Assembly: GCA_964633325.1 (NCBI GenBank) | Contig: CAZWFS010000002.1 | Coordinates: 25,657-89,656, forward strand | Length of the DNA stretch: 64,000 nt | Reading direction: 5' to 3' | Origin: an uncultured Candidatus Saccharibacteria bacterium | Lineage (GTDB): Bacteria; Patescibacteriota; Saccharimonadia; Saccharimonadales; CAZWFS01 | Shown here: in pieces, positions 5,322 to 57,187 of the stretch | Numbering within the stretch: the first letter of the stretch is position 1 | Layout: every line of letters begins with the position of its first letter | Program-made: the position numbers and the translations under genes | The notes under the pieces: generated by a model | What the model saw: the letters and a program-made list of their open reading frames with translations, nothing else | The model's database searches: none | Told to the model about the DNA's origin: nothing

Positions 5322-5700
5322 GCTAGGTTGTCGGCTGATCGCCTGCCCCTGAAAAAGGCGGGAGGAAAGTCCGGGCAGCATAGGGAATGGCAGTTGCTAA
5401 CGGCAACCGGGGGCAACCCTAGGGAAAGTGCCACAGAAACTATACCGCTGGTCCGCAAGGATTGGTAAGGATGAAAAGAGTGGGGTAAGAGCCCACAGTC
5501 TTTGACGGTGACGTCAGAGAGAGGTAAACCCTGCCTGCTGCAAGGAGATGGATCCTTTCGGGCCTAAAGCCCGGAAGTTTCCCGCTGAGGATTCATCATA
5601 AGAACCGCTCGATTCCACTGGCAACAGTGGGACTAGATAGATGATCAGCAAGTCCGCCTAAAAACGGATAAACAAAACCCGGCTTACAGACAACCTAGCG
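5322..5700 (+). ncRNA. rnpB: RNase P RNA, bacterial type A
   Basis: Conserved GGAGGAAAGTCCGGGC, CCACAGAAA and ACAAAACCCGGCTTA blocks. P1 pairs gctaggttgtc (5322-) with gacaacctagc (-5699). Confidence 0.85.
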
Positions 5701-5715
5701 CTAAAACCGAAAACC

Positions 5716-31273: not shown

Positions 31274-31909
31274 CTAAAAGGCGTCCATCACCACGACATT
31301 GGCTGTACTAAGCGGCTCTTCTAAAACACCCCGTCTATTATCAATGACCCGCCTAGTGAGAGCCTCCAGACCCGGGGATACCCTGACGCCCGTCTTATCG
31401 ACAGGCTTAAGTTCACTGCGATAATTAACTACTGTGCTATCCACCGGATCCCCGCGTTTTTTGGCCCCCAAGGCGAACAACCGTAGTCTTACACCTATGT
31501 CCTCAAGGCCCATCAAATGAGCTGCCCGCCCACGTTCTCTGGCTACCTCGTCAGGCGTGTTGACAACATTAACCAGCATGATTTCCTTGCCGTTCATGAA
31601 TTCGGCATAACGACCCACCCGTTCCATTAGTTCCCGAGGAGCAGTTCGTTCGTAGTCCGGCAACTCAAGTCCGCTTTTTACCGTAATCTCAAAAGTCTCC
31701 GGGTTGAACTCCGTCTCGTATGAGCCCAGGGCCTCTTCTTCAGACTCAATAACATCAACCAGGAGAGGATATAATGCGACGGCGCCAAACAATCCTAGAA
31801 TCTCATCATAGCCTTGCTCCAGCCTTAACGCTGGTTGAGCGACGAATAGTTCATCAGGTGCACGAACTTCAACTCCAAGGGAAAGATCAGTATATGTTTG
31901 TATTGCCAT
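31274..31909 (-). CDS. hypothetical acidic protein
   Basis: ORF; TTGACA-17-GATACT lies upstream. Confidence 0.5.
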   Translation of the reverse strand: MAIQTYTDLSLGVEVRAPDELFVAQPALRLEQGYDEILGLFGAVALYPLLVDVIESEEEALGSYETEFNPETFEITVKSGLELPDYERTAPRELMERVGRYAEFMNGKEIMLVNVVNTPDEVARERGRAAHLMGLEDIGVRLRLFALGAKKRGDPVDSTVVNYRSELKPVDKTGVRVSPGLEALTRRVIDNRRGVLEEPLSTANVVVMDAF

Positions 31910-32288: not shown

Positions 32289-32381
32289 GGATTATATTTT
32301 CTAACTATTATTGGAGTTTTGCAAGCAGCAGTGGTATGGGAATATATCAATGACAAGCTTTGGCTTTACGTAATGGAACTA

Positions 32382-32735
32382 TTATATTTCTGTGGGGGTA
32401 AGTAAATGTTCGAGGGCAACTGTAGCAAGTTCGTTTTGTGGGCTAAGAGCTTGTAATCTAGATGCGATCAAGTCAACTGTCACTGATTCGGCGGGACCGG
32501 TAGAGTAGAAATGGTTTGGATCAAGATCATGATTAGCTCTTAAAGCTTCTATGGTCACATTCCGATGTCCCGGCTGCCGGGTAGCAGTCACAATTTGTGG
32601 CGGCTGAACGTCATCTCTCAGGACCCGTAGTACAAAACCAGAGCCTCGTGAACTAGTAAGTTCACGAAAGGTCAGGCCCTCTTGCCACACTTTATTTATC
32701 GCTGAATGATTTCTTGACGTGAAGATACGATACAA
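32382..32735 (-). CDS. hypothetical protein
   Basis: ORF only. Confidence 0.45.
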   Translation of the reverse strand: MYRIFTSRNHSAINKVWQEGLTFRELTSSRGSGFVLRVLRDDVQPPQIVTATRQPGHRNVTIEALRANHDLDPNHFYSTGPAESVTVDLIASRLQALSPQNELATVALEHLLTPTEI

Positions 32736-32786: not shown

Positions 32787-33221
32787 CTATTTTTGCTGTA
32801 GTGCTTCAACGAAGTGCTCGACTTCGTTAAGCCTTGAGTCAAAGTAAGGGTCACCGCCGTCATGAGCTACACTTGCTTGCTGAGCACGCAGAAGCCCCAT
32901 TTCTATATAACCAGACATAGTAAGTACAGTTCGAGTGATTTCGGGATTTGCCCTCCAATGTTCCGGGAGTGCTTCGTGACCAGCAGCAAACATTCCAGCG
33001 AGCACTGTAGTAGATTCGCTTCCTATAGTGTTCAAATCTATACATACACCAAGCGCATCTCTCTCTGGATAGTGTGTGCGAGTTATTTCTGCCGCCCATT
33101 CCATATCTGCTGGGCTCTGTTCGCCAGTACGTGTCAAATGGTCGGCAATTACAGCAATTGGGTCATTTTTATACCCAGCTTCACCTACTAATGGGTCTTG
33201 CGAAGGATCTTTATCTGTCAT
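32787..33221 (-). CDS. hypothetical protein (apparently leaderless)
   Basis: Start set at MTDKD. TATGAT lies 6 nt upstream and TTGACT 17 nt further. Confidence 0.5.
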   Translation of the reverse strand: MTDKDPSQDPLVGEAGYKNDPIAVIADHLTRTGEQSPADMEWAAEITRTHYPERDALGVCIDLNTIGSESTTVLAGMFAAGHEALPEHWRANPEITRTVLTMSGYIEMGLLRAQQASVAHDGGDPYFDSRLNEVEHFVEALQQK

Positions 33222-33227
33222 AAGTAC

Positions 33228-33256
33228 ATCATAGCACAATAATGATACTTAGTCAA
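33228..33256 (-). promoter_or_regulatory. promoter TTGACT-17-TATGAT abutting repeat A
   Basis: Read directly; the -10 is 6 nt from the ATG. Confidence 0.5.
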
Positions 33257-33259
33257 TGC

Positions 33260-33385
33260 GGCGGGCTTGACCGGATTAGTGGACTGCGTCCTTTATCCAT
33301 TCCGGCGTGCTCGGTGCGAGCACCTGCGCGCATCCTCATTCCACGAACCGGCGCCCTTGCGGGCTATGCCGGTTCCAAGTCGCAA
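33260..33385. repeat. repeat A: ~125-nt structured repeat beginning with a tRNA-Asp 3'-end copy
   Basis: Roughly 90% identical by eye to 34526-34647. 33260-33277 matches the tRNA-Asp 3' end at 17 of 18 positions. Confidence 0.85.
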
Positions 33386-33486
33386 GCCGTTACTTTACAA
33401 GCATGAAACTATTTTGTAGAAACACAATCAACAAAACTGCAACTTATCTTTTCTAAGCACGTCGTCAGAGCTTAATCAGCTTCTGG

Positions 33487-34332
33487 CTATTCGCCCGCTG
33501 GTTGTGGGAGTTCAAAATCTTGGTAACGTAGGAACATATGGGCTTCGGTTTGGCGAAGTTTTTTTAGACCGTCAGCAGTTTGAGCAAAGAGGTAATTTCT
33601 TTCTGGTTTGGCAAACTGATAGTTTGGCTTGCTGCTTTGGTCTACTTGTAGGGCAGCCAATGACATGGTCAGACTAGCTTTAGCTCCGTCAAAACCAGCT
33701 TCTTTAGGATTAAAGCCAGGTACCCGTTCTGCATAGGTTTCAACTAATCCTAAAGCCGTCCTGAGTTGGTCAGCGCTACCCCATCTATTTAACTTGTATT
33801 GACCGTCAGCTACAAGTAGCCGGATGGTCTTGGTAGCTTTCGCCAGTACAGCAGGATTTTGTAGTTCGCCTGTATCAACTAATCCATCAAGCTCGCCACC
33901 CACATTAAAATCAACTACATCAGGCCCTGCCTGTACACGCTCAGGTTCAGTCGTACCGCGCATATCTAATGTTACGCTGGTCACGACTTTATCAAAGACA
34001 TCTTTTTCTTCTTCTGGCTTGGCTACATTAGGGGCTTCTTCTGCTAAGATTTCCTTAACTTCACCGTAAGAACGGCGTGCTTCTTGCTTTTTTACAGCTT
34101 CCCATACATTAACTCGCTCGGCTTCACGGTGTCCACCAACTGCTTTTACAATTACTTCCCGTTGAGAACTTAAATTAGCAGTAGTTTGTTCCTGTAAGGC
34201 ACCTTCAAGGAACCCAACCTTTTGCTCATAAAGCTTATCGTCAACGGGTGGCGTAACATTACCGCCAAGCACAGAGGGGTCAGTAGCGGGTGCTTCTTGT
34301 GGAGTTGGATTAGGGGGTAGTGGTTCGCTCAT
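33487..34332 (-). CDS. hypothetical acidic protein
   Basis: A 281-aa ORF with a promoter upstream. Confidence 0.55.
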   Translation of the reverse strand: MSEPLPPNPTPQEAPATDPSVLGGNVTPPVDDKLYEQKVGFLEGALQEQTTANLSSQREVIVKAVGGHREAERVNVWEAVKKQEARRSYGEVKEILAEEAPNVAKPEEEKDVFDKVVTSVTLDMRGTTEPERVQAGPDVVDFNVGGELDGLVDTGELQNPAVLAKATKTIRLLVADGQYKLNRWGSADQLRTALGLVETYAERVPGFNPKEAGFDGAKASLTMSLAALQVDQSSKPNYQFAKPERNYLFAQTADGLKKLRQTEAHMFLRYQDFELPQPAGE

Positions 34333-34379
34333 TGCTTTCTTGTTCCTATATTATTTTTGATTTTTATTAACCTACATGC

Positions 34380-34408
34380 ATACTAGCATTAGCTTGATGA
34401 ATTGTCAA
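34380..34408 (-). promoter_or_regulatory. promoter TTGACA-17-TAGTAT
   Basis: Read directly, ~45 nt upstream of the 34332 start. Confidence 0.5.
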
Positions 34409-34525
34409 GTATACGTAATGGTTCAATAGCTTGGAATCATCCGCAAAGGAGTCCAAGCTATGGACATGAGCTGTCCCAAGAACCCCAACCTATAAGTCCC
34501 CGGGCGTAAAAATCTGAGGTGTTAT

Positions 34526-34647
34526 CGGGCTCGAACGGATTAGCGGACTCCGTCCTTTATCCATTCCGGCGTGCTCGGTGCGAGCACCTGCGCGCATCCT
34601 CATTCCACGAACCGGCGCCCATGCGGGCTATGCCGGCTCTAATCGCA
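34526..34647. repeat. repeat B: second copy of the ~125-nt repeat
   Basis: Aligns with 33260-33385. 34526-34541 matches the tRNA-Asp 3' end at 15 of 16 positions. Confidence 0.85.
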
Positions 34648-34738
34648 GACAAGTTTACCCAAAGTAAAAGCCCTATCACTAGGATAGGACATTTACTTTG
34701 GCGGACTGTTGCGGAACAGGTATGGAACTATTTTGTTG

Positions 34739-35239
34739 TTAGCTCTGAGGTGCTTGACTTACAGACGATTGAACGTCAGAAGTTAACTGTTCTTGCATAG
34801 TTCGCATTGCGACAATATCCTCAACTACGGCCTGCATATCTCGCAAACTATACTCCCCACCAGCGAGTGGGTTATCAAAGGACCCTAACTCTTTGGGTTC
34901 CTGCTCTGGAGTATCGGAGTTTATGCTTGTTACGATAATCGTAGCGTCCTCATTGCTCGTGAACTGACCCATATCCAGAACTTCTGCTTTTATATGTACG
35001 CTCATCTCAGGCACAGTAAGCTCTTTAGGAGGACGAGAGCTGAGTGCGGCCATGGGGACGGATTTTGGCGTGGCGTCTTGCGCTAAGGGGTGCGTCAAGA
35101 TTACATTAGCACGGCCTTTGACGGCGTCTGCACGAGCTTTGGTAAGCTGTTTTTTACCCATTACTTCTAAGCTGTCACGCAAATCCTTAAAAGGATCACG
35201 GTCTGGATTTTCACTTGGACTTTCATGTGTTTGAGTCAT
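34739..35239 (-). CDS. hypothetical acidic protein (apparently leaderless)
   Basis: TAACAT lies 6 nt upstream of the ATG. Confidence 0.5.
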   Translation of the reverse strand: MTQTHESPSENPDRDPFKDLRDSLEVMGKKQLTKARADAVKGRANVILTHPLAQDATPKSVPMAALSSRPPKELTVPEMSVHIKAEVLDMGQFTSNEDATIIVTSINSDTPEQEPKELGSFDNPLAGGEYSLRDMQAVVEDIVAMRTMQEQLTSDVQSSVSQAPQS

Positions 35240-35245
35240 GAATAC

Positions 35246-35274
35246 ATGTTATCATAATATGATAATCTTGTCAA
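35246..35274 (-). promoter_or_regulatory. promoter TTGACA-17-TAACAT abutting the tRNA-Asp 3' fragment
   Basis: Read directly. Confidence 0.5.
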
Positions 35275-35276
35275 CT

Positions 35277-35294
35277 TGGCGGGCTCGACCGGAT
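35277..35294 (-). pseudogene. 18-nt exact copy of the tRNA-Asp 3' end (att-like)
   Basis: tggcgggctcgaccggat is identical to 35466-35483. Confidence 0.75.
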
Positions 35295-35465
35295 GTATAG
35301 CTTCTAGCCGGGTTGGCTATTTTACAAGTAAGGAGTGGCCAACTCGGTTTCGGCATATAATCTCGCTGACCGCTCGATTATGACCCGGCTTTCCCAGGTT
35401 CAAATCACGAGTTGAAACTCGTCCAGAAATAAAACAGCCATCCATAAGGACGGCTACTTTATTTC

Positions 35466-35541
35466 TGGCGGGCTCGACCGGATTTGAACCGGCGATCTCC
35501 TCCGTGACAGGGAGGCGTGATAACCACTTCACTACGAGCCC
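35466..35541 (-). tRNA. tRNA-Asp (anticodon GTC), CCA encoded
   Basis: Acceptor gggctcg/cgagccc, anticodon loop ctGTCac, T-arm gccgg-ttcaaat-ccggt. Confidence 0.9.
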
Positions 35542-35742
35542 TTGTTTACCCCACAAAACAGGTTTTGCGGGGACCCCGATGTCAGAACCGAGGGTCAGCT
35601 TGCACAGAACCAATGAATTGCTTCTGCTCCACCTTCTAGTCGCTTCTTCCTCTCAGTCCTTCAAACAGACAAGTCTTGGTTTGAAGAACTGGCTTAGACC
35701 AGCGACCAAGTAGCAATAGCACAGTAGCGACTTCCATTTACT

Positions 35743-35868
35743 AGGAGTTCCGCAGGATAGTACAGTTTGGGATGAAGGCCGAGCACCGAAGCGGAAGCGT
35801 ACAAATCGGTACGGAGAGCATCGGAGACGCAGGCTTTCGCCCGAAATGTGCTATTCTGCGAAGCTCCT
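35743..35868. repeat. 126-nt end-to-end hairpin element, copy 1
   Basis: Homologous to 61387-61509. A ~28-bp imperfect outer stem with G-U pairs on the + strand. Confidence 0.75.
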
Positions 35869-35939
35869 AAAAAGGACAATTGTGAGCATATCAACTACAG
35901 GGGTAAAAAGCAAACTGTTCGGTTACTTATGTCAGGGGT

Positions 35940-37073
35940 TCAAGGTGAGACGGGTTGGTCTTTGGCGGGGGCGTCTTCTGGGTTAGCCTTGGAGGGTTCA
36001 GGGAGGTTTATGTATAGACGGGCTTTTTTCTCTTCTTTGGCGGGGTTAAGGTATTCGTTAATATCCTTGAAGTTAAACAATATGTGGGCGGCACGGATCT
36101 TATCGGCCTGCTGTTCGATGTTCTTGATTATTTCTAACCCGTAGCCGACATTGATGATTTCCGAGAACTTACCCGGTTGGAGCTTAAATAGCGCGTCAGT
36201 CGTCAGGGCACTTAGGTCCCGGTTGGTTTTGTCTATAGGAAAGCCGAATTCACCATTGTTGTCTTTGCTGGCCGGGTCCTCGGATGACTTTTTGGCTACT
36301 GCGCCAAAATCAGCGCCGGCTTTAAGCTCGGTCAGCGCTGCTTCCGCTTTGGCGTGTGCTTCTTTGTCCAACGCGGAAACTACTTTTTGGGCAAGCATCT
36401 GTTGCTTCAATGAACGCTTAAAGTCACTTACGGACCAGCCAAAGTTTTCCTTCAGGGCATCCTCGAAGCTACGATCGCTCGCTCCCAGCCGATTCTGGTT
36501 ACGGACGATTACAATCTGATTTTCTAATTCTTGATTACTAACGGACACGTCATTTTTCTTTGCCAACTGTTTTACGTAGGCATCGTTAATGACCCGCTCT
36601 AGCGCCCTCTTTTTGTATTCAGCTAGCTGTTGCCTGCCGGCCTCACTGTTAAAATCCAGTTTCTGCTGCGTTTCATAATAGTGCGTGTAGTGGCGCAGTT
36701 CGAATAAATAATTTTCGTATGCGACATAATTCCCGCCGATTTTGGCGACCGGAAACGGAATTACACGCGTAACGCCATATAGAAAAGTCGATGTATCCTT
36801 AAGTCTATATAGGCCGATAATACAGTAGCTGAAGAAAGCTACCAGAGTAACAATGAACAAAGTAGTGGAGACAAGCACAATGCGGTGCTTAGAGTGCTGT
36901 AACGGGTAAATATATTTACGGGCACTGGATAGCACATCCTCGCGGTGGGCCGCGACTGTTTCGTTGGTAATGCGAGGCACACTCTCGGGTCCCGTCTCTA
37001 GGGGCCCAAGTTCTTTTTCCGGTATGACTTCTCGGTATTTACGGGGCCGGAGTAACTTTTTAATCTTCTTCAT
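35940..37073 (-). CDS. membrane-anchored PpiC/parvulin-type peptidyl-prolyl isomerase (PrsA/SurA-like)
   Basis: An N-terminal TM and a parvulin-like C-terminal domain (ELKAGADFGAVAKKSSEDPASKDNNGEFGF...). Confidence 0.55.
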   Translation of the reverse strand: MKKIKKLLRPRKYREVIPEKELGPLETGPESVPRITNETVAAHREDVLSSARKYIYPLQHSKHRIVLVSTTLFIVTLVAFFSYCIIGLYRLKDTSTFLYGVTRVIPFPVAKIGGNYVAYENYLFELRHYTHYYETQQKLDFNSEAGRQQLAEYKKRALERVINDAYVKQLAKKNDVSVSNQELENQIVIVRNQNRLGASDRSFEDALKENFGWSVSDFKRSLKQQMLAQKVVSALDKEAHAKAEAALTELKAGADFGAVAKKSSEDPASKDNNGEFGFPIDKTNRDLSALTTDALFKLQPGKFSEIINVGYGLEIIKNIEQQADKIRAAHILFNFKDINEYLNPAKEEKKARLYINLPEPSKANPEDAPAKDQPVSP

Positions 37074-37602
37074 CTAAGCCTACGTCCTTGTTTGCCGGGT
37101 AAGCCCCGGTGGTTATTCCCTGTTCCCTTAGGATTTCTTGAAACTTCTTTTGAATCTTGGCCGGATGATGTACGTCGTGGATTACCAGGTCGCCGACGTA
37201 CGTCTGCATCATAATAGTGCCATAGCCCAGCAGTGTCTCCTGCAAGCCTGCCACCTGATAGTTTACCATCTGTATCTGATTAAGCCCTAGGTCTACAACG
37301 CTGCGGTGGAACATACCTTTTTGGGTGATTTGTATTAGCCGCTGGTCCGTGACGATAAAAATACTATAAAACCAGCCCAGCCAGGCAGGAAATAGCAGCA
37401 GTCCACTTAGTATAAAACCGGCCGCCAAGCCGCCAAAGAATACCCCGAACCCCCATTCCGGCTTGATGGCCGCCGGGATCACCCCTAGGAGCGGACCTAG
37501 ACTGGCCAGCACAAGCCCCTTTCTCATTACCACAGGATGCCTTCGGAACACATACAGCACTTCCTCGTCGTCAAACTGGTCCTTGAAGTATTTTTGTGGC
37601 AT
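37060..37602 (-). CDS. membrane protein with a bacterial PH-like (YdbS/DUF304-like) domain
   Basis: EEVLYVFRRHP, then two TM helices, then a beta-rich domain. Confidence 0.45.
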   Translation of the reverse strand: MPQKYFKDQFDDEEVLYVFRRHPVVMRKGLVLASLGPLLGVIPAAIKPEWGFGVFFGGLAAGFILSGLLLFPAWLGWFYSIFIVTDQRLIQITQKGMFHRSVVDLGLNQIQMVNYQVAGLQETLLGYGTIMMQTYVGDLVIHDVHHPAKIQKKFQEILREQGITTGAYPANKDVGLDEED

Positions 37603-37691: not shown

Positions 37692-37727
37692 GCGCCCCTG
37701 TAGTTCAATGGATAAAACAACTCCGTC
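37692..37727 (+). pseudogene. degenerate 5'-half copy of tRNA-Arg
   Basis: gcgcccctgtagttcaatggataaaacaactccgtc compared with the 5' half of the tRNA at 37791. A 14-nt exact core, and no matching 3' half. Confidence 0.55.
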
Positions 37728-37790
37728 AAACCACCCCAAAAAATGCACTTCGTTGGCATTTTCCGGGGACCCCTATACAATTTCTGCTGT

Positions 37791-37866
37791 GGCCCGGTAG
37801 TTCAATGGATAGAACACCACCGTCCTAAGGTGGGTGTTGGGGGTTCGACTCCCTCCCGGGTCACCA
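37791..37866 (+). tRNA. tRNA-Arg (anticodon CCT), CCA encoded
   Basis: Acceptor ggcccgg/ccgggtc, anticodon loop gtCCTaa, T-arm ggggg-ttcgact-ccctc. Confidence 0.85.
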
Positions 37867-41225: not shown

Positions 41226-42140
41226 ATGCTATTCGCTAAAGCTAAGACGACCTTCTTGGAATATTTGGAAATCGAACAGAACCGTTCCCAGAAGACAATC
41301 CGCAATTATGATCATTATTTGACCAGGCTTGATGATTTCGCAGGAGACATCGAAGTTAAGGATATAGACGCGGAACTTATTCGCAAATGGCGACTCTGGC
41401 TGAACCGTCTGGGCACCAATGTGTCAGACGAATTGCAGAAGTCTACACAGAACTATCACTTAATTGCTCTGAGAAGTTTTCTTAAATTCTGTGCCAAGCG
41501 TGATATCCCCGCCCTGCCGGCAGATAAAGTGGAGCTGGGACGCACGATCCGAAAGCAGGTCACTTTTCTCACGCCTGAAGAGCTGGAACGATTATTCGCC
41601 CAGTCGGACATATCTACTCTGCCCGGCCTGCGTGACCGTTCTATTTTGGAGCTGTTGTTCTCCTCCGGCTTGCGTGTGTCGGAGCTAGTGGGACTGGACA
41701 AAGATCATGTTAACCTGAAGCGCCGTGAATTCATGGTGCGAGGTAAAGGCCAGAAAGACCGGCCGATCTTCATCAGCGAAAGGACGGCCGACTGGGTGCA
41801 GCGGTATCTGGATCGTCGCACCGATAACGTCAAGCCACTGTTTATCCGCTTCGGGGGCAACAAGCAGGTTGACCTAAGCGGTAACTATCATCGCCTGACT
41901 GCCCGTAGCGTCCAGCGGATGGTAGCCCGCTACGCCCTGATGGCCGGCATCACTAAGCACGTCAGCCCCCATACTCTCAGGCATAGTTTCGCGACGGACC
42001 TACTCATGAACGGTGCGGATTTGAGAAGCGTCCAGGCTATGCTGGGACATGCTAATATTGCGACTACCCAGATATACACTCACGTCACTGACCCGCATCT
42101 GAAATCCGTACATGAACGTTTCCACGGGAAAAATACCTAA
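41226..42140 (+). CDS. xerC: tyrosine recombinase XerC/XerD family
   Basis: C-terminal catalytic motifs HTLRHSFATDLL...LGHANIATTQIYTHV, and an N-terminal SAM-like domain. Confidence 0.9.
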   Translation: MLFAKAKTTFLEYLEIEQNRSQKTIRNYDHYLTRLDDFAGDIEVKDIDAELIRKWRLWLNRLGTNVSDELQKSTQNYHLIALRSFLKFCAKRDIPALPADKVELGRTIRKQVTFLTPEELERLFAQSDISTLPGLRDRSILELLFSSGLRVSELVGLDKDHVNLKRREFMVRGKGQKDRPIFISERTADWVQRYLDRRTDNVKPLFIRFGGNKQVDLSGNYHRLTARSVQRMVARYALMAGITKHVSPHTLRHSFATDLLMNGADLRSVQAMLGHANIATTQIYTHVTDPHLKSVHERFHGKNT

Positions 42141-51761: not shown

Positions 51762-52432
51762 CTTACTTCCTTCGTGGTTATGGTAAGTGTCTTCTCCGGT
51801 TGGTAGAAAGTCTTGGCACCTATCGTAAGCTGCATAAGACTGTCATTGCCAGAGAAGGATACTTTCTGCACATGGAAGGGGCGGACTGAACGTTCCATGA
51901 CAGATATGAGCGACTGAACGGCCGGATAGCTACCGCTTATATCTATCTCGAATGGAATGTCAACGACTACCGGAGCGGCTCCACCGCTGTTAGTCTTTTG
52001 GTTGAGCTCGTCGTCTTTTCCGGTGATACTACCAATCTTGTAAGCCTTGTTGCTAAGAATTTTATCTAGGGAGGTAGCCAGTGCTGGAAAATCATATTTG
52101 CTTGGTAGTGCATCCAGTATTATCTTGGCGTTATCGCCATCACGGTCTCCCCTGCCGTTCGGATTGCCCCCCAGCACGTTCTCCGGCGCCCCGATGAACT
52201 GCTGATATGACGCGGTCAGGCTTTGGGCAGCCTTGATATTTTCCTGAAGCTGCTTTTTGGCTTTATCTTTCTCTACAATGACTCTTGACTGATAGGCCCG
52301 TTGTTTAAGCAAGGCACGGCTGGCTATCAACCCGAAGATGATGATGAATGAGGCGCCTGCTATGATGGCCATCATGGTGGCGTTGGCCTTACTTATCTGT
52401 AGGCGTTTGCTAGATAATGCGAATTTTGCCAT
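51758..52432 (-). CDS. pilO: PilO-like pilus assembly protein
   Basis: TM plus coiled-coil plus C-terminal domain, positioned after pilN. Start set at MAKFALSS. Confidence 0.55.
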   Translation of the reverse strand: MAKFALSSKRLQISKANATMMAIIAGASFIIIFGLIASRALLKQRAYQSRVIVEKDKAKKQLQENIKAAQSLTASYQQFIGAPENVLGGNPNGRGDRDGDNAKIILDALPSKYDFPALATSLDKILSNKAYKIGSITGKDDELNQKTNSGGAAPVVVDIPFEIDISGSYPAVQSLISVMERSVRPFHVQKVSFSGNDSLMQLTIGAKTFYQPEKTLTITTKEVR

Positions 52433-52442
52433 AGTTGTATTC

Positions 52443-53126
52443 CTACCTGTTCGTTTCCGTATTAGCTGGCTGTTGGAACAATGCGCCCGGTTTCTCAATT
52501 TCGGAACGCGTGGTAATGATCTTCGGAACGGTCAGGGTTACTTCGCTGGCGGTGTCAAATATAACCGGATCGAAAACCAGCACTATATTGTAAGTAGCCC
52601 CCTTGTCATTCCTACCGAAATTAACAAGGACGACATCGGAGAATGACTTACCTTTCTTGCTGCCGTCGGAAGTATTGAAATCGGTAAACTTGATTGTGTC
52701 GATGAACTTATTGACCGTACTCAGGTTATCAGTATCTCCGGTGATATTTATGCTGTTCGCTTCAAAATCGATGTCGAGCTTAGATATGTTGACCTGTGTA
52801 GGTGTAATCTGAGTCAGATAATTGAATAGACGCGAGACTACCGGTTTCTTATTATGTAGCTCCGGTAGACTACCGAGCTGGTTCTGTACAGTTAGGATTT
52901 TATTAAGTTCCGGGGTAGCCTGCAACTGGTGGCTGTCGCGCTTTATGTCTTTGGTCAGGTTATCCGAGTGCTGTTTCTGGAATACCCTAACCACCATGAA
53001 CAGGGCGATGAATATCGTCAGAACCACGCCTGAAGCCAGCGCTGATACGACCATGACCACCCTCTTAGCACGACGTGCCTTTATGAACTGCAGTTTTACG
53101 TCGGGGAGTAAGTTGAACTGGATCAT
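52443..53126 (-). CDS. pilN: PilN fimbrial assembly protein
   Basis: MIQFNLLPDVKLQFIKARRAKR followed by a TM. Confidence 0.8.
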   Translation of the reverse strand: MIQFNLLPDVKLQFIKARRAKRVVMVVSALASGVVLTIFIALFMVVRVFQKQHSDNLTKDIKRDSHQLQATPELNKILTVQNQLGSLPELHNKKPVVSRLFNYLTQITPTQVNISKLDIDFEANSINITGDTDNLSTVNKFIDTIKFTDFNTSDGSKKGKSFSDVVLVNFGRNDKGATYNIVLVFDPVIFDTASEVTLTVPKIITTRSEIEKPGALFQQPANTETNR

Positions 53127-53150
53127 CGTAGTTCACCTCCTACAAAGTAA

Positions 53151-53179
53151 GGTTGTAGGTTGTAGCTTGTAGGTTGTAG
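53151..53179. repeat. heptad tandem repeat GGTTGTA/GCTTGTA x4
   Basis: ggttgtaggttgtagcttgtaggttgtag lies 25 nt upstream of the pilN ATG. Confidence 0.85.
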
Positions 53180-53200
53180 TAAATCAAAGTACTTACCTAA

Positions 53201-53225
53201 TTTGTAATTTGTAACTTGTAACTTA
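53201..53225. repeat. heptad tandem repeat TTTGTAA/CTTGTAA x3-4
   Basis: tttgtaatttgtaacttgtaactta, directly after the pilM stop. Confidence 0.8.
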
Positions 53226-53232
53226 TGGTGTG

Positions 53233-54273
53233 TCATTCTACGCGCTCCGCCAGTCCGGCTGCCACCCCGAAGTGATTAGAAACGGCCAGCAGTTCATTCT
53301 GGCGCTCTGCTGCGAAAGATACATTCCGCCATGCGTTGCCGATTTCTACGTTGATAGCGAACTTATTTGCTATATATAGTGGGAATTCTGGCAAGGCCGA
53401 GGCTCCGCCAGTGACAACTATCCTATCCACCATCACCGCCGGATAACGCGTCTGGAAGAACTTGATCGATTTATCTATCTCCGTCATCAGTATGTCTACC
53501 GTACCAATTATGGCGTTATATACCTGCCCTTCGAGCTTATCTTTGCTAAGGCCGAACTTGAATACGAACTGTTGAGCCTGGTTGTCGTCTATATTCAGAT
53601 TCTGTGTGGCTGCCTTAATAATGGCTTCTGAACCGGTAGGTATGGAACGTGTCAGGCGAGGCGCTCCGTTCATGCTCACCACGATGTCAGTGCTCTTATT
53701 TCCTATATCGACCACCATTTCCGGGGCAGTTGCTTCAGATGGCATAATAGCGCGGATCAGCGCCAGGTTGTCCGGCTCGAAGGCGATGACATTCAGACCT
53801 ATCGATTCCAAAAGATCTAGACGGGATTCTATGAATTTGTTAGTAACACTGGATAGAAGGACTTCTACCTTGTTCTTGTCCACGGGTGAATCGCCCAGTA
53901 CGGCCCAATCCAGCTTGGACTCGGATACGGCTGTGGGTATCAGGCCGTCCGCCTGGTAACGGATGGATTTGGCAAGCTCACCAGGACTGAGGCGATCAAT
54001 ATCAATCAATGTCGTAAAGACCCGTTGCGACGGGATGCCAACTGCTACGTTACGGGTAGTCACTTTGGCTTGGGCCAATAATTCACGGACGATCTCTATC
54101 ATTTTCTGCTGATCGGTACTGGAGTCGCTCATGGCAATCTTACTATCTACGGGAGCGTACGCGTACCGGTCCAACGCTTTCAGGCGGCCACTCCCACGCA
54201 ATTGCACTAACCGTATAGCGGTAGTGCCGATATCGAGTCCGAAAAAATCAGATACCCCACTCAGTAGACCCAT
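53233..54273 (-). CDS. pilM: PilM (actin-like pilus assembly ATPase)
   Basis: FGLDIGTTAIRLVQL and an actin/FtsA-like fold pattern. Confidence 0.9.
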   Translation of the reverse strand: MGLLSGVSDFFGLDIGTTAIRLVQLRGSGRLKALDRYAYAPVDSKIAMSDSSTDQQKMIEIVRELLAQAKVTTRNVAVGIPSQRVFTTLIDIDRLSPGELAKSIRYQADGLIPTAVSESKLDWAVLGDSPVDKNKVEVLLSSVTNKFIESRLDLLESIGLNVIAFEPDNLALIRAIMPSEATAPEMVVDIGNKSTDIVVSMNGAPRLTRSIPTGSEAIIKAATQNLNIDDNQAQQFVFKFGLSKDKLEGQVYNAIIGTVDILMTEIDKSIKFFQTRYPAVMVDRIVVTGGASALPEFPLYIANKFAINVEIGNAWRNVSFAAERQNELLAVSNHFGVAAGLAERVE

Positions 54274-54420
54274 ACTGCTACAGCCCTCGCCTGTCTATAA
54301 TTTTGTCGGTACCGACTATGTGCATGGTATTGGATGCCGCTTTTACTTTTTTCATATGCCCTGTCTTGGCTTTAACGAGACTCGTAGGACCTATATTCAT
54401 ATGCGCTTCGTTAAAAGTTC

Positions 54421-54443
54421 ATTGATTTGAATCAATTATAGCA
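54421..54443 (-). promoter_or_regulatory. extended -10 (TGCTATAAT) overlapping a perfect 16-bp palindrome ATTGATT-TG-AATCAAT
   Basis: Read directly in the 214-bp gap upstream of pilM. Confidence 0.45.
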
Positions 54444-54487
54444 TAAGCAAAATCGGGTAACCAGCAAAATTAACTTACTAATTCCTC

Positions 54488-57187
54488 TCATAATACCGGG
54501 GGCATGCTGCTAATAGCGTCGTACTTGACAGCCGTGTCCGTTATAGTCGGAAGAGGGGCTGCCAGCCACATCTCTGGGCTGAAGCTGAAGACCTCGGCTA
54601 TGCTGGGGTCGGTGGCGGTCTCGGTGGGGATGCTGGCCCGTAGCGAGCCATTGGTACGCAGCAGCTTGATGGACCTGGCTATGAAGGAGCCATTAACCGT
54701 CAGGGCGGCCGGGACTGGGTTGCCGTCGCACTCGCTCATGAAGGTACCGTCCAGGTCAGGCAGGGCTCCGGTGATGCCGGTCCACTTGGCGCAGGTGTAG
54801 ATATTGCCGCGGGCATCGGCCGCGTCCGGCTGGGCCACATAGACCCCGTCCAGCTGGGTGACGTCCTTGTCTATATAGATGTTGCCTTTGGCTATTAGGT
54901 AGAAGGATGGGATGTTGGGGGCGGTCCAGGGCCCGGCGGCATAGGTGATGTTGGCGTCGATGAACACGTCGCCGTCCACGAAGACCTTGGTGGGCGTGGC
55001 TGCGGCGGGGATGACCGCTCCTGGGTGGGAGTATGGGCCGGTGATGATGGGTGCCGGGCCGGAAGTGCCGAAGTAGTTTGGGTTCGGGCAGCGGGAGTCC
55101 CTGAAGCCACCGCCGTAAGTTGAGCCGGCATCGGCCGGGTCACCGGCGTTGGCGAAAGTCAGGCCTTTGGGTGGTGTCGGCTCGGTCGGGCTGGCGGGCC
55201 CGGCCCGGCCAGCGGCAGAGCTGAACTCCTCTATCTTAGACATAGCCTGGGCAGCCAGCTGGGTAGCGGCGCCGGAACCGTCATCCTTGGCAAAGCCCAG
55301 GATGCGGCTGCCGGGTGTGGAGGCGGAACAGCCGACGCTATTGAACTCTGGCAGGCCGGCTAGGACGTCGCCGCCGTAGACACGGAAGTAAGGTTTGTTG
55401 GTGATAGTTTCGCAGCTCACGACGGGAGGCGCGGTGCTAGCAAACGTGATACTACCATCCGGATGGACCGTCCCGGAAGTAGGAGTGAGAGTGAGCCGTG
55501 AGCATATCTTGTCTCCGGCGGTGACTACAGGCATCGTGCTTGAGTCAGGCGGGCTAAATACGGTAGTGCCAGGCGGGAAAAGATTGGTCCGGGGGTTCGG
55601 CGGGCTCGGTCCGGTGGGCATAGGAATTTCCGTACCGGGAGGAGCACCTAGAGGTACGCGGAAGTACTTGCGGGTAGTAGTCAGGTTTACCCCAGCCGGT
55701 GGTGCCGGCCCTCCAGGGTCAGGATTAAAGGTAAGTGTCACCCTATTATCGAATATGGCACTTGTAGGATTCTCGGTATCGGGATCCAAAGAGGCCGTGG
55801 TGCTACCACTGGCCGTGAATCCCCAACATATAGGCGCAACGAATTCGGCCGTCGCCGAGTGCCTTGCATAATTCTGGTACCAGACGCGTACCCAGTACTT
55901 TGAGCCACGATTCAGCACCATCGTAGGTGGTTTTCCTAATTGGCCAGTGAAGCTATTTGGTGCCGGGGTCGTGAATACCCCGGCTGGAATTGGTTTGTTC
56001 CAAAACCCGTTGTTGTTCCAATCATTGTCACTATCGAAATCCACGTAATAAGGAGTCGACCCCAGCCCACCATCGGTCCAATTGACATTGGCGGTGACGA
56101 CGCCATTGATACACTGGGTGGTTATAACAGGTGGCGGCGGATTGCATTGCTTATCATAATAAAAGCTGTCGAACGGTACCCACATCTGCACACCGTTATT
56201 ACGGTTGACCTTGTACCATTTCCAGATATATACCTTGTCCGAGCGGGCAGTGAAGCTGATATCCCTATACTGGCCGTTACCCCCTATGTTCGGTGCTGTA
56301 CCGGCATCTATGTTCCGGATCAGGACAGCACCCCCTCCACCCGGGTCTGCTTCGAACAGCTCGAAACGTATCTGGGTGTCGCCAGGAAATTGTGCCCCGT
56401 CCGCTGGCAAGCCGCCGTTACTGGCCGCGTCGGCATCATTCCATCTGAGGAGAGCGGTCTGTGAGCCGGGCGCATTACAAGGTGGCGCAAATTCAAAGGT
56501 AAAATCAATTTCCGTATTGGTTGCATTGACTCGGTCCTGGACGGCGTAGCCGCCGCCGCCCGACCAGTAGCTGGCTGTTCCACAGCATGACTTGGACGCT
56601 ATCTTAAAGCCATTTATGCGTCCTTCTGCTGGTCCGCCAGTCGTCCAAACTGCCCTGGTATAGATGACGTAACGAAAGCCAGCCCCAGTATCGAGAGGAC
56701 CAGATGGAGGTGTAGGTACCCCAAAATCATTCCAGATGTTGTTAGCCAAGCTACTACTATTAATCGTCATAAAGGGCCATGGTTCCGGGGTGCTCCCGTT
56801 GGTTGCGGCATCGCCGAAGTAAAACTCATAGTTGACCGCCCCGGCATCAAAACATCCTGAGGCGCCAGAACCCTGGGAGTCATATTGGTTAGAACCACAG
56901 TTTGAGAAATCGCCATCAAGTATTTGCATCCTAAGAGGAGGTGCAGCAGGAGTATAGTACATCTTTCCCCAGCTTTCTGGGGCGTTTAGGGCTATCCCCG
57001 ATCCTGGCTGGCTAATCTCAAGTGTCACATACCAGTTCGGAGGTCCGCCGCCGGGAGTAGTAAAGCCATTACTGTCGGGAAGTTCGTAGGATACTGCTCC
57101 GACTGACGGAGATTGCCCAAGCAAAAAGAGTACTGAAACAAATGCCATAAAAAACAAACCAACTTTTAACTTACGATGCATTGTCAT
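54488..57187 (-). CDS. large secreted protein, T4P-flanking paralog 2
   Basis: Signal peptide, a unique N-terminal ~600 aa, and the shared C-terminal domain. The start overlaps the upstream stop (TAATG). Confidence 0.7.
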   Translation of the reverse strand: MTMHRKLKVGLFFMAFVSVLFLLGQSPSVGAVSYELPDSNGFTTPGGGPPNWYVTLEISQPGSGIALNAPESWGKMYYTPAAPPLRMQILDGDFSNCGSNQYDSQGSGASGCFDAGAVNYEFYFGDAATNGSTPEPWPFMTINSSSLANNIWNDFGVPTPPSGPLDTGAGFRYVIYTRAVWTTGGPAEGRINGFKIASKSCCGTASYWSGGGGYAVQDRVNATNTEIDFTFEFAPPCNAPGSQTALLRWNDADAASNGGLPADGAQFPGDTQIRFELFEADPGGGGAVLIRNIDAGTAPNIGGNGQYRDISFTARSDKVYIWKWYKVNRNNGVQMWVPFDSFYYDKQCNPPPPVITTQCINGVVTANVNWTDGGLGSTPYYVDFDSDNDWNNNGFWNKPIPAGVFTTPAPNSFTGQLGKPPTMVLNRGSKYWVRVWYQNYARHSATAEFVAPICWGFTASGSTTASLDPDTENPTSAIFDNRVTLTFNPDPGGPAPPAGVNLTTTRKYFRVPLGAPPGTEIPMPTGPSPPNPRTNLFPPGTTVFSPPDSSTMPVVTAGDKICSRLTLTPTSGTVHPDGSITFASTAPPVVSCETITNKPYFRVYGGDVLAGLPEFNSVGCSASTPGSRILGFAKDDGSGAATQLAAQAMSKIEEFSSAAGRAGPASPTEPTPPKGLTFANAGDPADAGSTYGGGFRDSRCPNPNYFGTSGPAPIITGPYSHPGAVIPAAATPTKVFVDGDVFIDANITYAAGPWTAPNIPSFYLIAKGNIYIDKDVTQLDGVYVAQPDAADARGNIYTCAKWTGITGALPDLDGTFMSECDGNPVPAALTVNGSFIARSIKLLRTNGSLRASIPTETATDPSIAEVFSFSPEMWLAAPLPTITDTAVKYDAISSMPPVL
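54555..55400. repeat. 846-bp direct repeat, copy 2
   Basis: See copy 1. Confidence 0.9.

Follow-up and report, generated by a model that had tools for sequence, protein, structure and literature searches.

The question raised by this locus is what two short, folded repeats that read like a broken tRNA-Asp are doing between protein genes, downstream of a tRNA-Asp that is itself intact. The repeats, referred to here as A and B, lie in a 64,000-nt stretch of DNA (hereafter the window) from an uncultured Candidatus Saccharibacteria bacterium (assembly GCA_964633325.1, contig CAZWFS010000002.1, positions 25,657 to 89,656), whose genome, 96.5% complete, is called the source genome below. Saccharibacteria, with genomes of about 1 Mb, single-copy tRNAs and few mobile elements that can be recognised, live as parasites for which accessory genes are important. 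As laid out in the following sections, A and B are copies of a widespread folded element of Saccharibacteria. Its members, here called units, are linked to the 3' ends of tRNA genes of many isotypes, carry a conserved folded module and a duplicate of the tRNA end (the tail), and in arrays such as this one border gene cassettes. As to how the units arise, we see about an even chance that they are products of insertion at the tRNA 3' end and that their folded tRNA-sense strand is the working form, likely as a recombination site.

Two repeats built from parts of tRNA-Asp

The tRNA sense at the window locus is the minus strand. Repeats A (33262-33378) and B (34526-34642) are 94% identical over 117 nt without a gap, where an earlier note on this DNA, made from the sequence alone, had estimated roughly 90% by eye. 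That note had read them as a T-arm and acceptor fragment of tRNA-Asp interrupted within the T-loop, and the details bear it out. Repeat A contains GCCGGTTC (33352-33345), a 68-nt insert (33344-33277) and then AATCCGGTCAAGCCCGCC, and A and B end in 16/18 and 15/18 copies, respectively, of the 3' 18-mer of tRNA-Asp. In A, the GGCTTG of an antisense copy of the tRNA end pairs with the CAAGCC of the tail, and both deviate from the tRNA at a paired position.

The two repeats represent only tRNA positions ~44-57 and 59-76. Neither ARAGORN nor the Rfam tRNA model finds a tRNA gene at A or B, and a tRNA or tRNA pseudogene was rejected as their identity, since either would require an acceptor 5' strand, a D arm and an anticodon arm arranged in a cloverleaf. 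Among sequencing runs, no RNA run is listed for this stretch, which is found only in DNA contigs from soil metagenomes; their unitigs break at the repeats and yield no joints, which leaves these data uninformative on expression or excision.

A family spread across Saccharimonadales

The repeats are not an isolated pair; they belong to an order-wide family that sits behind tRNAs of many isotypes. Repeat A, used as a BLAST query, matched 25 of 101 related genomes (the source genome included), with the core best conserved. An exact 22-mer of this core occurs in 65 public genome stretches, of which 62 are titled Saccharibacteria, Saccharimonadales, Saccharimonadia or Patescibacteria and the remaining three lie on two contigs of metagenome-assembled genomes (MAGs) with Bacillota-type titles. 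A covariance model, R1, was built from 26 aligned cores (alignment A2) together with the nested structure derived from them. This search for further copies turned up homologues in 97 of 151 sampled Saccharimonadales genomes, at 1-23 copies each, and no match in the other 54, so that presence within the order is patchy. Among 151 genomes sampled from the phylum, only the source genome and one other of the same order match. Six places in the source genome are recognised by R1: repeat A (33273-33353, 81.5 bits), repeat B (34537-34617, 83.8 bits) and the units behind tRNA-Arg-tct, tRNA-Phe, tRNA-Ser-cga and, weakly, tRNA-Glu-ttc.

Known RNA families do not account for the element. In an Rfam 15 scan of the window only tRNA and RNase P reach the gathering threshold; the repeats themselves have no match even at E <= 10, nor do four module types, scanned in 10 related loci, at E <= 1. 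The RNase P hit is a bacterial RNase P RNA of class A (5323-5702, 254 bits). No description of such units was found in a literature search at the level of listings and abstracts, and the family is apparently new to the literature.

Position behind tRNA genes and the duplicated tail

In the loci that were fetched, the module lies at most 200 nt downstream of a same-strand tRNA, of any isotype, in 93 of 133 cases, and many of the remaining loci offer only ~400 nt of flank. At least 17 isotypes are represented: Asp, Tyr, Ser, Lys, Arg, Gly, Glu, Asn, Pro, Ala, Phe, Gln, Met, Val, His, Ile and Thr. For 49 of 92 tRNAs (95 loci) the last 15 nt recur downstream with at most 2 mismatches, a share that reflects the choice of loci for their module content and is not to be read as a genome-wide rate; 48 of the 49 copies end 117-231 nt past the tRNA.

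The block of identity between tail and tRNA has a median length of 18 nt (54 units). Its left edge falls at tRNA position 59 in 24 of the 54 units and at positions 58-60 in 42, that is, in the T-loop just past A58, and the junction lies directly 3' of TTCG or TTCA in 42 of the 54. Both marks of a generic direct-repeat-flanked insertion at a tRNA 3' end, a distal copy of the tRNA 3' segment and an intact tRNA, are present.

Within the source genome, 9 of 45 tRNAs carry a unit, seven with a clean copy of the tail and two with a module whose tail has decayed. The unit behind tRNA-Arg-tct scores 94.7 bits with R1 despite a tail that has visibly diverged from the tRNA 3' end. A foreign tRNA allele was considered as the source of this tail and rejected: its 30 exact matches in 185,579 species genomes are all chance-like, and the only one in Saccharibacteria falls within a coding sequence. 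The more probable origin is decay or co-evolution on site.

A conserved fold

The strong evidence for a fold is comparative and does not come from the folding of single sequences, where the gain over shuffled controls is only modest. In the tRNA sense, z is -1.88 for A (7 of 200 shuffles as good) and -2.54 for B (1 of 200); on the opposite strand the values are -2.10 and -0.27. The fold derived from the alignment is a coaxial stack that runs from a 2-bp helix through a GA/GNA internal loop to a 5-bp helix with one conserved A-C position, and continues with two invariant G-C pairs, an internal loop of CGCGCA/GAGCA, a 4-bp stem and a second hairpin. Repeat A has both internal loops and, as its two hairpins, GGTG-CTCG-CACC and GGAC-GCA-GTCC. 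Across the 26 sequences 87.7% of the cells are paired and 13 of 17 pairs show compensatory changes; none of 500 shuffles did as well, and slid controls reached 20-41%. With 99 distinct sequences, in an alignment that was fitted to R1 and so flatters its figures, 88.1% of cells are paired and 16 of 17 pairs are compensatory. The compensatory changes go beyond the controls, and a rival fold was rejected.

That rival fold involves one of the hairpins proposed in the earlier note, which fared unevenly. The hairpin ggac-gca-gtcc is backed by compensatory changes in 3 of 4 pairs in the 26 sequences and 4 of 4 in the 99, and gccc-GCAA-gggc within aaccgg/ccggtt is present as described. The 7-bp hairpin gtgctcg-cac-cgagcac can form in the window copies, and indeed in most sequences, but it breaks where the relatives vary, with only 1 of 7 pairs compensatory. 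It was ruled out as the conserved fold in favour of a nested stem, GGTG/CACC, capped by a CTYG loop, in which 4 of 4 pairs show compensatory changes and pairing reaches 98-99%. The outer helix ccgga...tccgg is seen in units on tRNAs with a T-stem of CCGG or CCGA and may not be general in the family.

The tRNA-sense strand is the one favoured by the pattern of variation, with 19 G-T wobble cells over 10 pairs against 4 A-C cells outside the conserved A-C position. In 85 of 99 sequences the loop of the 4-bp stem is CTTG or CTCG; tetraloops of the CTTG type are familiar from RNA. The loop of the second hairpin is 3 nt long in 58 of the 99, in 34 of them as C(GNA)G, and three-base loops of this kind are typical of very stable DNA mini-hairpins and unusual in RNA.

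Anatomy of the units and the module types

A typical unit follows the order tRNA-CCA, terminator T1, diverged antisense copy of the tRNA 3' third, apical hairpin, T-stem 5' strand plus TTCG, module and tail. The antisense copy is often split by a small hairpin, and a second terminator is often found 3' of the tail. The design of T1, in which CCA and an A-tract pair with a T-tract and TGG, recurs after tRNAs and tails in related loci. When the antisense arm is compared with the reverse complement of the 3' third of its own tRNA, the likeness reaches p <= 0.05 in 32 of 54 units and p <= 0.01 in 12; the best arm (locus L068) is near-perfect over 31-32 nt, with 2 mismatches and 1 gap. The helix that the antisense arm can form with the T-stem 5' copy has at least 7 contiguous pairs in 17 of 37 units and reaches p <= 0.05 in 6 of 37.

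The idea that the split T-arm is maintained as a functional T-arm does not hold up. In the Lys-ttt unit of the source genome the T-stem 5' copy and its antisense partner have drifted jointly from the tRNA, while the tail stays tRNA-like, which indicates that the likeness to a T-arm is inherited, not maintained.

Repeats A and B carry what we call the type-1 module, and at least three further module types occupy the same slot. Type 2 is found in the window itself, in the unit directly behind tRNA-Asp (35295-35465 ahead of the tail), and BLAST finds its core in 8 of 100 relatives. The tail of this unit (35277-35294) matches the tRNA-Asp 3' end at 18/18 positions, and its first 69 nt align to the opposite strand as well, over the end of the tRNA, which reveals a palindrome. 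Type 3 lies behind tRNA-Val-tac (contig C3 of the source genome) and, in two copies, behind tRNA-Lys-ttt (C7), and type 4 behind tRNA-Gln-ctg (C3) and tRNA-Met-cat (C9). Both types have hairpins with a CCAGYGG-like loop and gave no Rfam match in the loci tested. In module types other than type 1 the junction falls anywhere from position 52 to 61.

The same tRNA can be used more than once and in more than one way. Two identical 196-nt units stand in tandem behind tRNA-Lys, and the module types behind tRNA-Asp differ between genomes. The smallest form seen, in locus L080 (356-589), is a tandem pair of near-identical 117-nt minimal units behind tRNA-Arg-ccg, without T1. Past tRNA-Phe on C3 of the source genome (43737-43812), a type-1 unit with a strongly decayed tail is followed by a stretch that resembles a tRNA 5' end and D-arm and runs directly into a type-3 module.

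The tRNA-Asp array and its cargo

The coordinates of the tRNA-Asp locus are collected in Table 1. Reading outward from the tRNA, the order is type-2 unit, ORF166, degenerate tail with terminator, unit B, ORF281, unit A, ORF150, ORF117 and ORF211 (ORF, open reading frame), after which comes a convergent core gene. Promoter-like sites (10/12 score) precede ORF166, ORF281, ORF150 and ORF211 on the minus strand, and two of these sites start 3 nt past a tail. The tails do not decay steadily with distance: that nearest the tRNA matches at 18/18 positions, B at 15/18 and A at 16/18. Weak tail-like remnants lie between ORF117 and ORF211, and these two genes are the probable older end of the array.

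Searches of Pfam, PHROGs, NCBIfam and PADLOC gave no match for ORF166, ORF281, ORF150, ORF117 or ORF211. A homologue of ORF281, at 79% identity, is found in another Saccharibacteria MAG amid unrelated flanks; behind it, too, stands an Asp-like tail with a terminator, and then a type-1-like module with a tail. At another locus, tRNA-Gly and a module with its tail enclose six accessory genes in an island of 5 kb. In locus L248 (8324-9675), from a genome with 23 modules, a SMODS nucleotidyltransferase and a SLATT effector, a pair like those of cyclic-oligonucleotide-based antiphage signalling systems (CBASS), adjoin a type-1 module.

Several smaller features were noted in the window. A motif of ~20 nt, ACAAAATAGTTyCAT... 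in the minus sense, recurs just past the stops of ORF166, ORF281 and ORF117 (34716-34736, 33397-33417 and 32373-32388). An 18-nt palindromic motif lies upstream of both tRNA-Asp (35563-35580) and tRNA-Arg (37759-37776), and the 5' part of tRNA-Arg(CCT) is partially duplicated at 88% identity 97 nt upstream of that gene (37696-37727 versus 37793-37824).

Table 1. Features of the tRNA-Asp locus, listed from the tRNA outward (window coordinates)
Feature	Coordinates	Strand	Description	Basis
tRNA-Asp(GTC)	35466..35541	-	Anchor of the array; source of the repeated tail (last 18 nt)	ARAGORN; Rfam tRNA, 70 bits
Terminator T1	35423..35468	-	Lower stem: tRNA CCA and A-tract pair with T-tract and TGG	Sequence reading
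Type-2 unit, first behind tRNA-Asp	35277..35465	-	T1, partial antisense T-arm copy GATTTGAACC, structured module, tail	
ORF166, cassette gene	34739-35239 (part 34739..35274)	-	Promoter-like TTGACA-17-TAACAT, 35274-35246, starting 3 nt past the tail	
Degenerate tail-like ...TCCGCCA, then T1-type terminator	34655..34705	-	Terminator stem 34690-34670	Sequence; terminator scan
Repeat B, type-1 unit	34523..34654	-	Decayed antisense segment, hairpin, GCCGGTTCG, module, tail 34523-34540 (15/18)	
ORF281, cassette gene	33487-34332 (part 33487..34408)	-	Promoter-like TTGACA-17-TAGTAT, 34408-34380	
Repeat A, antisense copy (AS) of tRNA-Asp acceptor 3' strand and T-arm	33368..33389	-	CGGCTTGCGAC..TTGGAACCGGC	Comparison with tRNA reverse complement
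Repeat A, apical hairpin hp1	33353..33367	-	GCCC-GCAA-GGGC	
Repeat A, copy of T-stem 5' strand and TTC	33345..33352	-	GCCGGTTC	Identical to tRNA-Asp
Repeat A, conserved type-1 module	33277..33344	-	68 nt; nested helix stack	Covariation
Repeat A, tail	33259..33276	-	AATCCGGTCAAGCCCGCC, copy of tRNA-Asp positions 59-76	16/18 match
ORF150, cassette gene	part 32787..33256	-	Promoter-like TTGACT-17-TATGAT, 33256-33228, starting 3 nt past tail A	
ORF117, orphan	32382-32735	-		
ORF211, orphan	31274-31909	-	Promoter-like site 31974-31946	

The search for a linked enzyme

Profile searches of the source genome found no reverse transcriptase domain (PF00078) and no IS110-type DEDD transposase (PF01548). 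In the same genome, the only one so searched, there was no Y1 transposase (PF01797) and no TnpB zinc ribbon (PF07282), with positive controls that matched; a Y2 search was also without match, but its control matched nowhere either, which makes that result uninformative. What the source genome does encode is one Xer-type recombinase (window 41226-42140), three large serine recombinases and, on a different contig, a single phage-type integrase. An integron array was rejected for lack of an IntI: the nearest tyrosine recombinase, and the only one in the window, is the Xer-type protein, which scores 134.6 and 85.1 bits against the NCBIfam integron-integrase models, far below their cut-offs of 265 and 435. 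There is likewise no integrase in the window array or in loci L247 and L248.

Large serine recombinases have a relationship of their own with tRNA 3' ends. Eight of the 11 genes examined are convergent with a tRNA, five overlapping it by 12-22 nt and three separated from it by gaps of 67-126 nt. The overlapping genes are L291 7089-8693, L292 9822-11423, L293 4633-6204, L296 7941-9542 and, on contig C1 of the source genome (outside the window), 35653-37155. Their last codons (..GRGERT* and ..GARERT*) and TGA stop are the antisense of the acceptor/T-stem and T-loop, so that integration would set the C-terminus of the recombinase. In L292 and L296 a large serine recombinase element with a different distal end of its own lies between the tRNA and the unit, which is found beyond it. 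Also on C1, at 52038-54997 (L246 39-2998), the gene directly after an alanyl-tRNA-synthetase-like ORF (509 aa) encodes a large serine recombinase of 457 aa; this may be an element inserted in or beside alaS.

How might the units arise, and what might they do?

The explanation that we put at about an even chance is that of insertion at the tRNA 3' end. Tandem identical units, different modules behind the same tRNA and a perfect tail nearest the tRNA together point to repeated insertion in which older material moves outward. Insertion would be directed to the segment from T-loop to CCA and would leave the tRNA intact, with the conserved module placed where A58 would stand and each unit standing behind a tRNA or an earlier unit. 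The tRNA-sense strand could then fold in such a way that its antisense and sense arms together restore a double-stranded likeness of the tRNA end, from which the module would project as a side branch, and this folded form might be used as a recombination site, like integron attC or the attP of CTX phage, by an enzyme acting in trans. The earlier note had offered three readings, an att-site arm, a tRNA-derived mini-element or a tRNA-like regulatory RNA between cassette ORFs, and the core of the first two stands, namely units linked to tRNA 3' ends that border gene cassettes and have parts copied from tRNA-Asp. A more specific version strikes us as rather unlikely: an integron-like cassette platform on tRNA 3' ends, with no integrase borne by cassette or array and with a folded single-strand site whose module projects at the T-loop. 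A host enzyme would handle the site (the lone Xer, competence or repair proteins or another module-binding protein), units without cargo would be landing pads, and cassettes would be captured without breaking a single-copy tRNA.

A number of observations weigh against the insertion reading. Viral contigs contain no exact match to the 22-mer core, and no free attP-like form was found there; 118 viral matches to a degenerate 14-base pattern were dismissed as chance because the sequence flanking the module is missing in all of them. Units without cargo cannot travel as classical circles, given that a double-stranded circle of 117-200 bp is physically implausible. No recombinase accompanies the module consistently. 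The five highest-copy genomes have at most one Xer-type tyrosine recombinase each, with none detected in G026, and clustering of the ORFs of 60 module-bearing loci gave no recurrent neighbour family beyond duplicate regions. Large serine recombinases and the module are not associated (62 genomes with both, 35 with the module only, 40 with the recombinase only and 14 with neither; odds ratio 0.62, p = 0.28), a table that assumes the same 151-genome sample for both counts and in which G033 is flagged as unpublished; the 35 include the nearly complete G036, G058 and G040, with 7-11 copies. The helix between antisense arm and T-stem 5' copy, which is mostly the near-universal GAACC/GGTTC, scores as well with swapped partners (mean 6.9 bp for own partners versus 6.6, with only 3 of 26 units above the 90th percentile). 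Finally, tails decay while modules are highly conserved, which fits a function of the module's own better than a pure att site. The missing enzyme and the conservation of the module weaken the case for insertion, and the pattern equally fits a noncoding RNA.

That alternative, which we consider a possible though less probable account, takes the unit as a noncoding RNA, either stand-alone or co-transcribed with the tRNA, with a protein-binding or catalytic module and the tail as a tRNA-like processed 3' end. Position behind tRNAs would then reflect shared transcription or processing and not mobility, and the two accounts are compatible, as an RNA could well have had an insertional origin. Beyond the conservation of the module next to a decaying tail and the absence of a linked enzyme, a noncoding RNA is favoured by the strong covariation, the clustering of invariant nucleotides in the internal loops (the G-A-rich CGCGCA/GAGCA and GA/GNA), the wobble bias on the sense strand, the CTTG/CTCG loop in 85 of 99 sequences, and the two terminators that often bracket a unit whose tail ends in CCA. 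It has to contend with at least four unrelated module types in one slot, with tandem identical copies and arrays, with absence from 54 of 151 genomes and with the DNA-typical C(GNA)G loops in 34 of 99 sequences; nor, on a reading of the sequence, is a conserved promoter seen between T1 and the unit, and T1 should stop transcription from the tRNA. Unlikely in our judgement is that the units are attR-side scars of classical tRNA-targeting elements with a tyrosine integrase or large serine recombinase, the module being arm sequence and the cargo-less units deletion remnants. Direct repeats of a partial tRNA from T-loop to 3' end are a hallmark of such elements, as is generally known and as a preprint on tycheposons describes (10.1101/2020.12.28.424599), and the convergence of 8 of 11 large serine recombinase genes with tRNA 3' ends and the elements of L292 and L296 between tRNA and unit speak the same way. 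Yet these two elements have a different distal end with the unit beyond it, recombinase and module are unassociated (35 module genomes lack the recombinase), and high-copy genomes have no phage-type integrase. Moreover, the cargo-less units are not ragged remnants but share one precise architecture that starts at CCA, and compensatory changes are unexpected in arm sequence.

Two further accounts take the junction at the T-loop as their starting point. In one, which we think very improbable, module and tail are the guide RNA of an IS200/IS605-type nuclease (the omega-RNA of TnpB), or a descendant of it: a scaffold followed by a guide of ~18 nt at the 3' end that matches the tRNA end, with TTCRA of the T-loop as target-adjacent motif and insertion site. 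The layout would fit, in that a structured scaffold precedes an 18-20-nt target-identical 3' segment and the junction lies directly 3' of TTCG/TTCA in most units (42 of 54), but the source genome has no TnpB zinc ribbon, Y1 or IS110-type transposase, no such gene adjoins the modules, Rfam gives no match, and the tRNA is intact, the insert lying in its duplicated copy. The other, to which we attach next to no credence, makes the units retro-copies, with the tail and a TGG-led antisense arm derived from reverse transcription of a mature tRNA up to the modified A58. An 18-nt block ending at position 59, an antisense arm that begins with TGG and the parallel of the 18-nt primer binding site of long-terminal-repeat retroelements all suit this idea. 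It is at odds with the lack of PF00078 in the source genome, with best antisense arms that reach ~position 44, well past 18 nt, and with the junction that varies from 52 to 61 in other module types.

Implications

The units form a new, well-supported family of structured nucleic acids, and the conservation of its internal loops asks for either a catalytic role or a partner protein. In Saccharimonadales the units would provide the main visible framework for genome plasticity, marking where orphan, defence and metabolic genes enter. If the fold works as single-stranded DNA, it would be the third recombination site, after attC and the CTX-type attP, to exist only in folded form, and one that copies its own target. 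In practical terms, the covariance model is an annotation tool for island borders in Saccharibacteria MAGs, and tails may serve genetic work as sites for safe insertion in those few strains that can be cultivated and are naturally transformable.

Comparison with known systems

The units share single traits with several families of small elements. The ends of IS200/IS605 elements and the TnpB omega-RNA have a scaffold and a short target-identical 3' segment that lies 3' of a fixed motif, much as the units do; unlike these elements, the units have no TnpB or TnpA in the source genome, no adjoining ORF family and no Rfam match. A bridge RNA of the IS110 type was rejected on similar grounds, there being no PF01548 in the source genome and no recurrent adjoining ORF family. 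Repetitive extragenic palindromes and bacterial interspersed mosaic elements (REP/BIME), Correia elements and MITEs (miniature inverted-repeat transposable elements) are likewise short, structured, protein-less, intergenic and multi-copy, and often stand at the 3' ends of genes. Those families are marked by terminal inverted repeats together with short duplications of the target, or by a RAYT partner, and use many intergenic sites, whereas the units are always at a tRNA 3' end and have an 18-nt duplication, and no Y1 transposase was found in the source genome.

Two systems are known in which a recombination site exists only when folded, integron attC and the attP of CTX-type phages. The latter belongs to integrative mobile elements exploiting Xer (IMEX), and its inverted target-like arms could fold into an image of the target; like the units, it presents an inverted arm, a spacer and a direct arm at the distal junction, and the element encodes no recombinase. 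CTX-type phages target dif, whereas the units would target the T-loop and acceptor of a tRNA and have no phage genome attached; a role for Xer in the units is pure conjecture. The likeness to integrons is one of architecture only. It takes in same-strand arrays of mostly orphan genes, imperfect palindromic sites conserved more in structure than in sequence, strand-specific folding and the placing of new cassettes beside the anchor, and it extends to attC clusters that lack an integrase. The anchor of an integron is attI beside the integrase gene, whereas that of the units is any of many different tRNA genes; in addition, the cassette genes of the units have promoter-like sites of their own, and the site contains a copy of its target.

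As described in a preprint, the tycheposons of Prochlorococcus have partial-tRNA repeats, keep the tRNA intact and form stacked islands of accessory cargo (10.1101/2020.12.28.424599). Insertion at the tRNA 3' end, an intact tRNA, older inserts displaced outward, orphan cargo and decaying partial tRNAs would be common to both. Tycheposons bring their own integrase and replication genes, whereas the units are mostly 117-231 nt long, geneless and without a consistent recombinase. The units also have a covarying module and an antisense tRNA copy in front of the tail, features not described for tycheposons in the accessible text of that report (10.1101/2020.12.28.424599). On this comparison, tycheposon islands are the nearest described system to the units behind the tRNA genes of Saccharibacteria.

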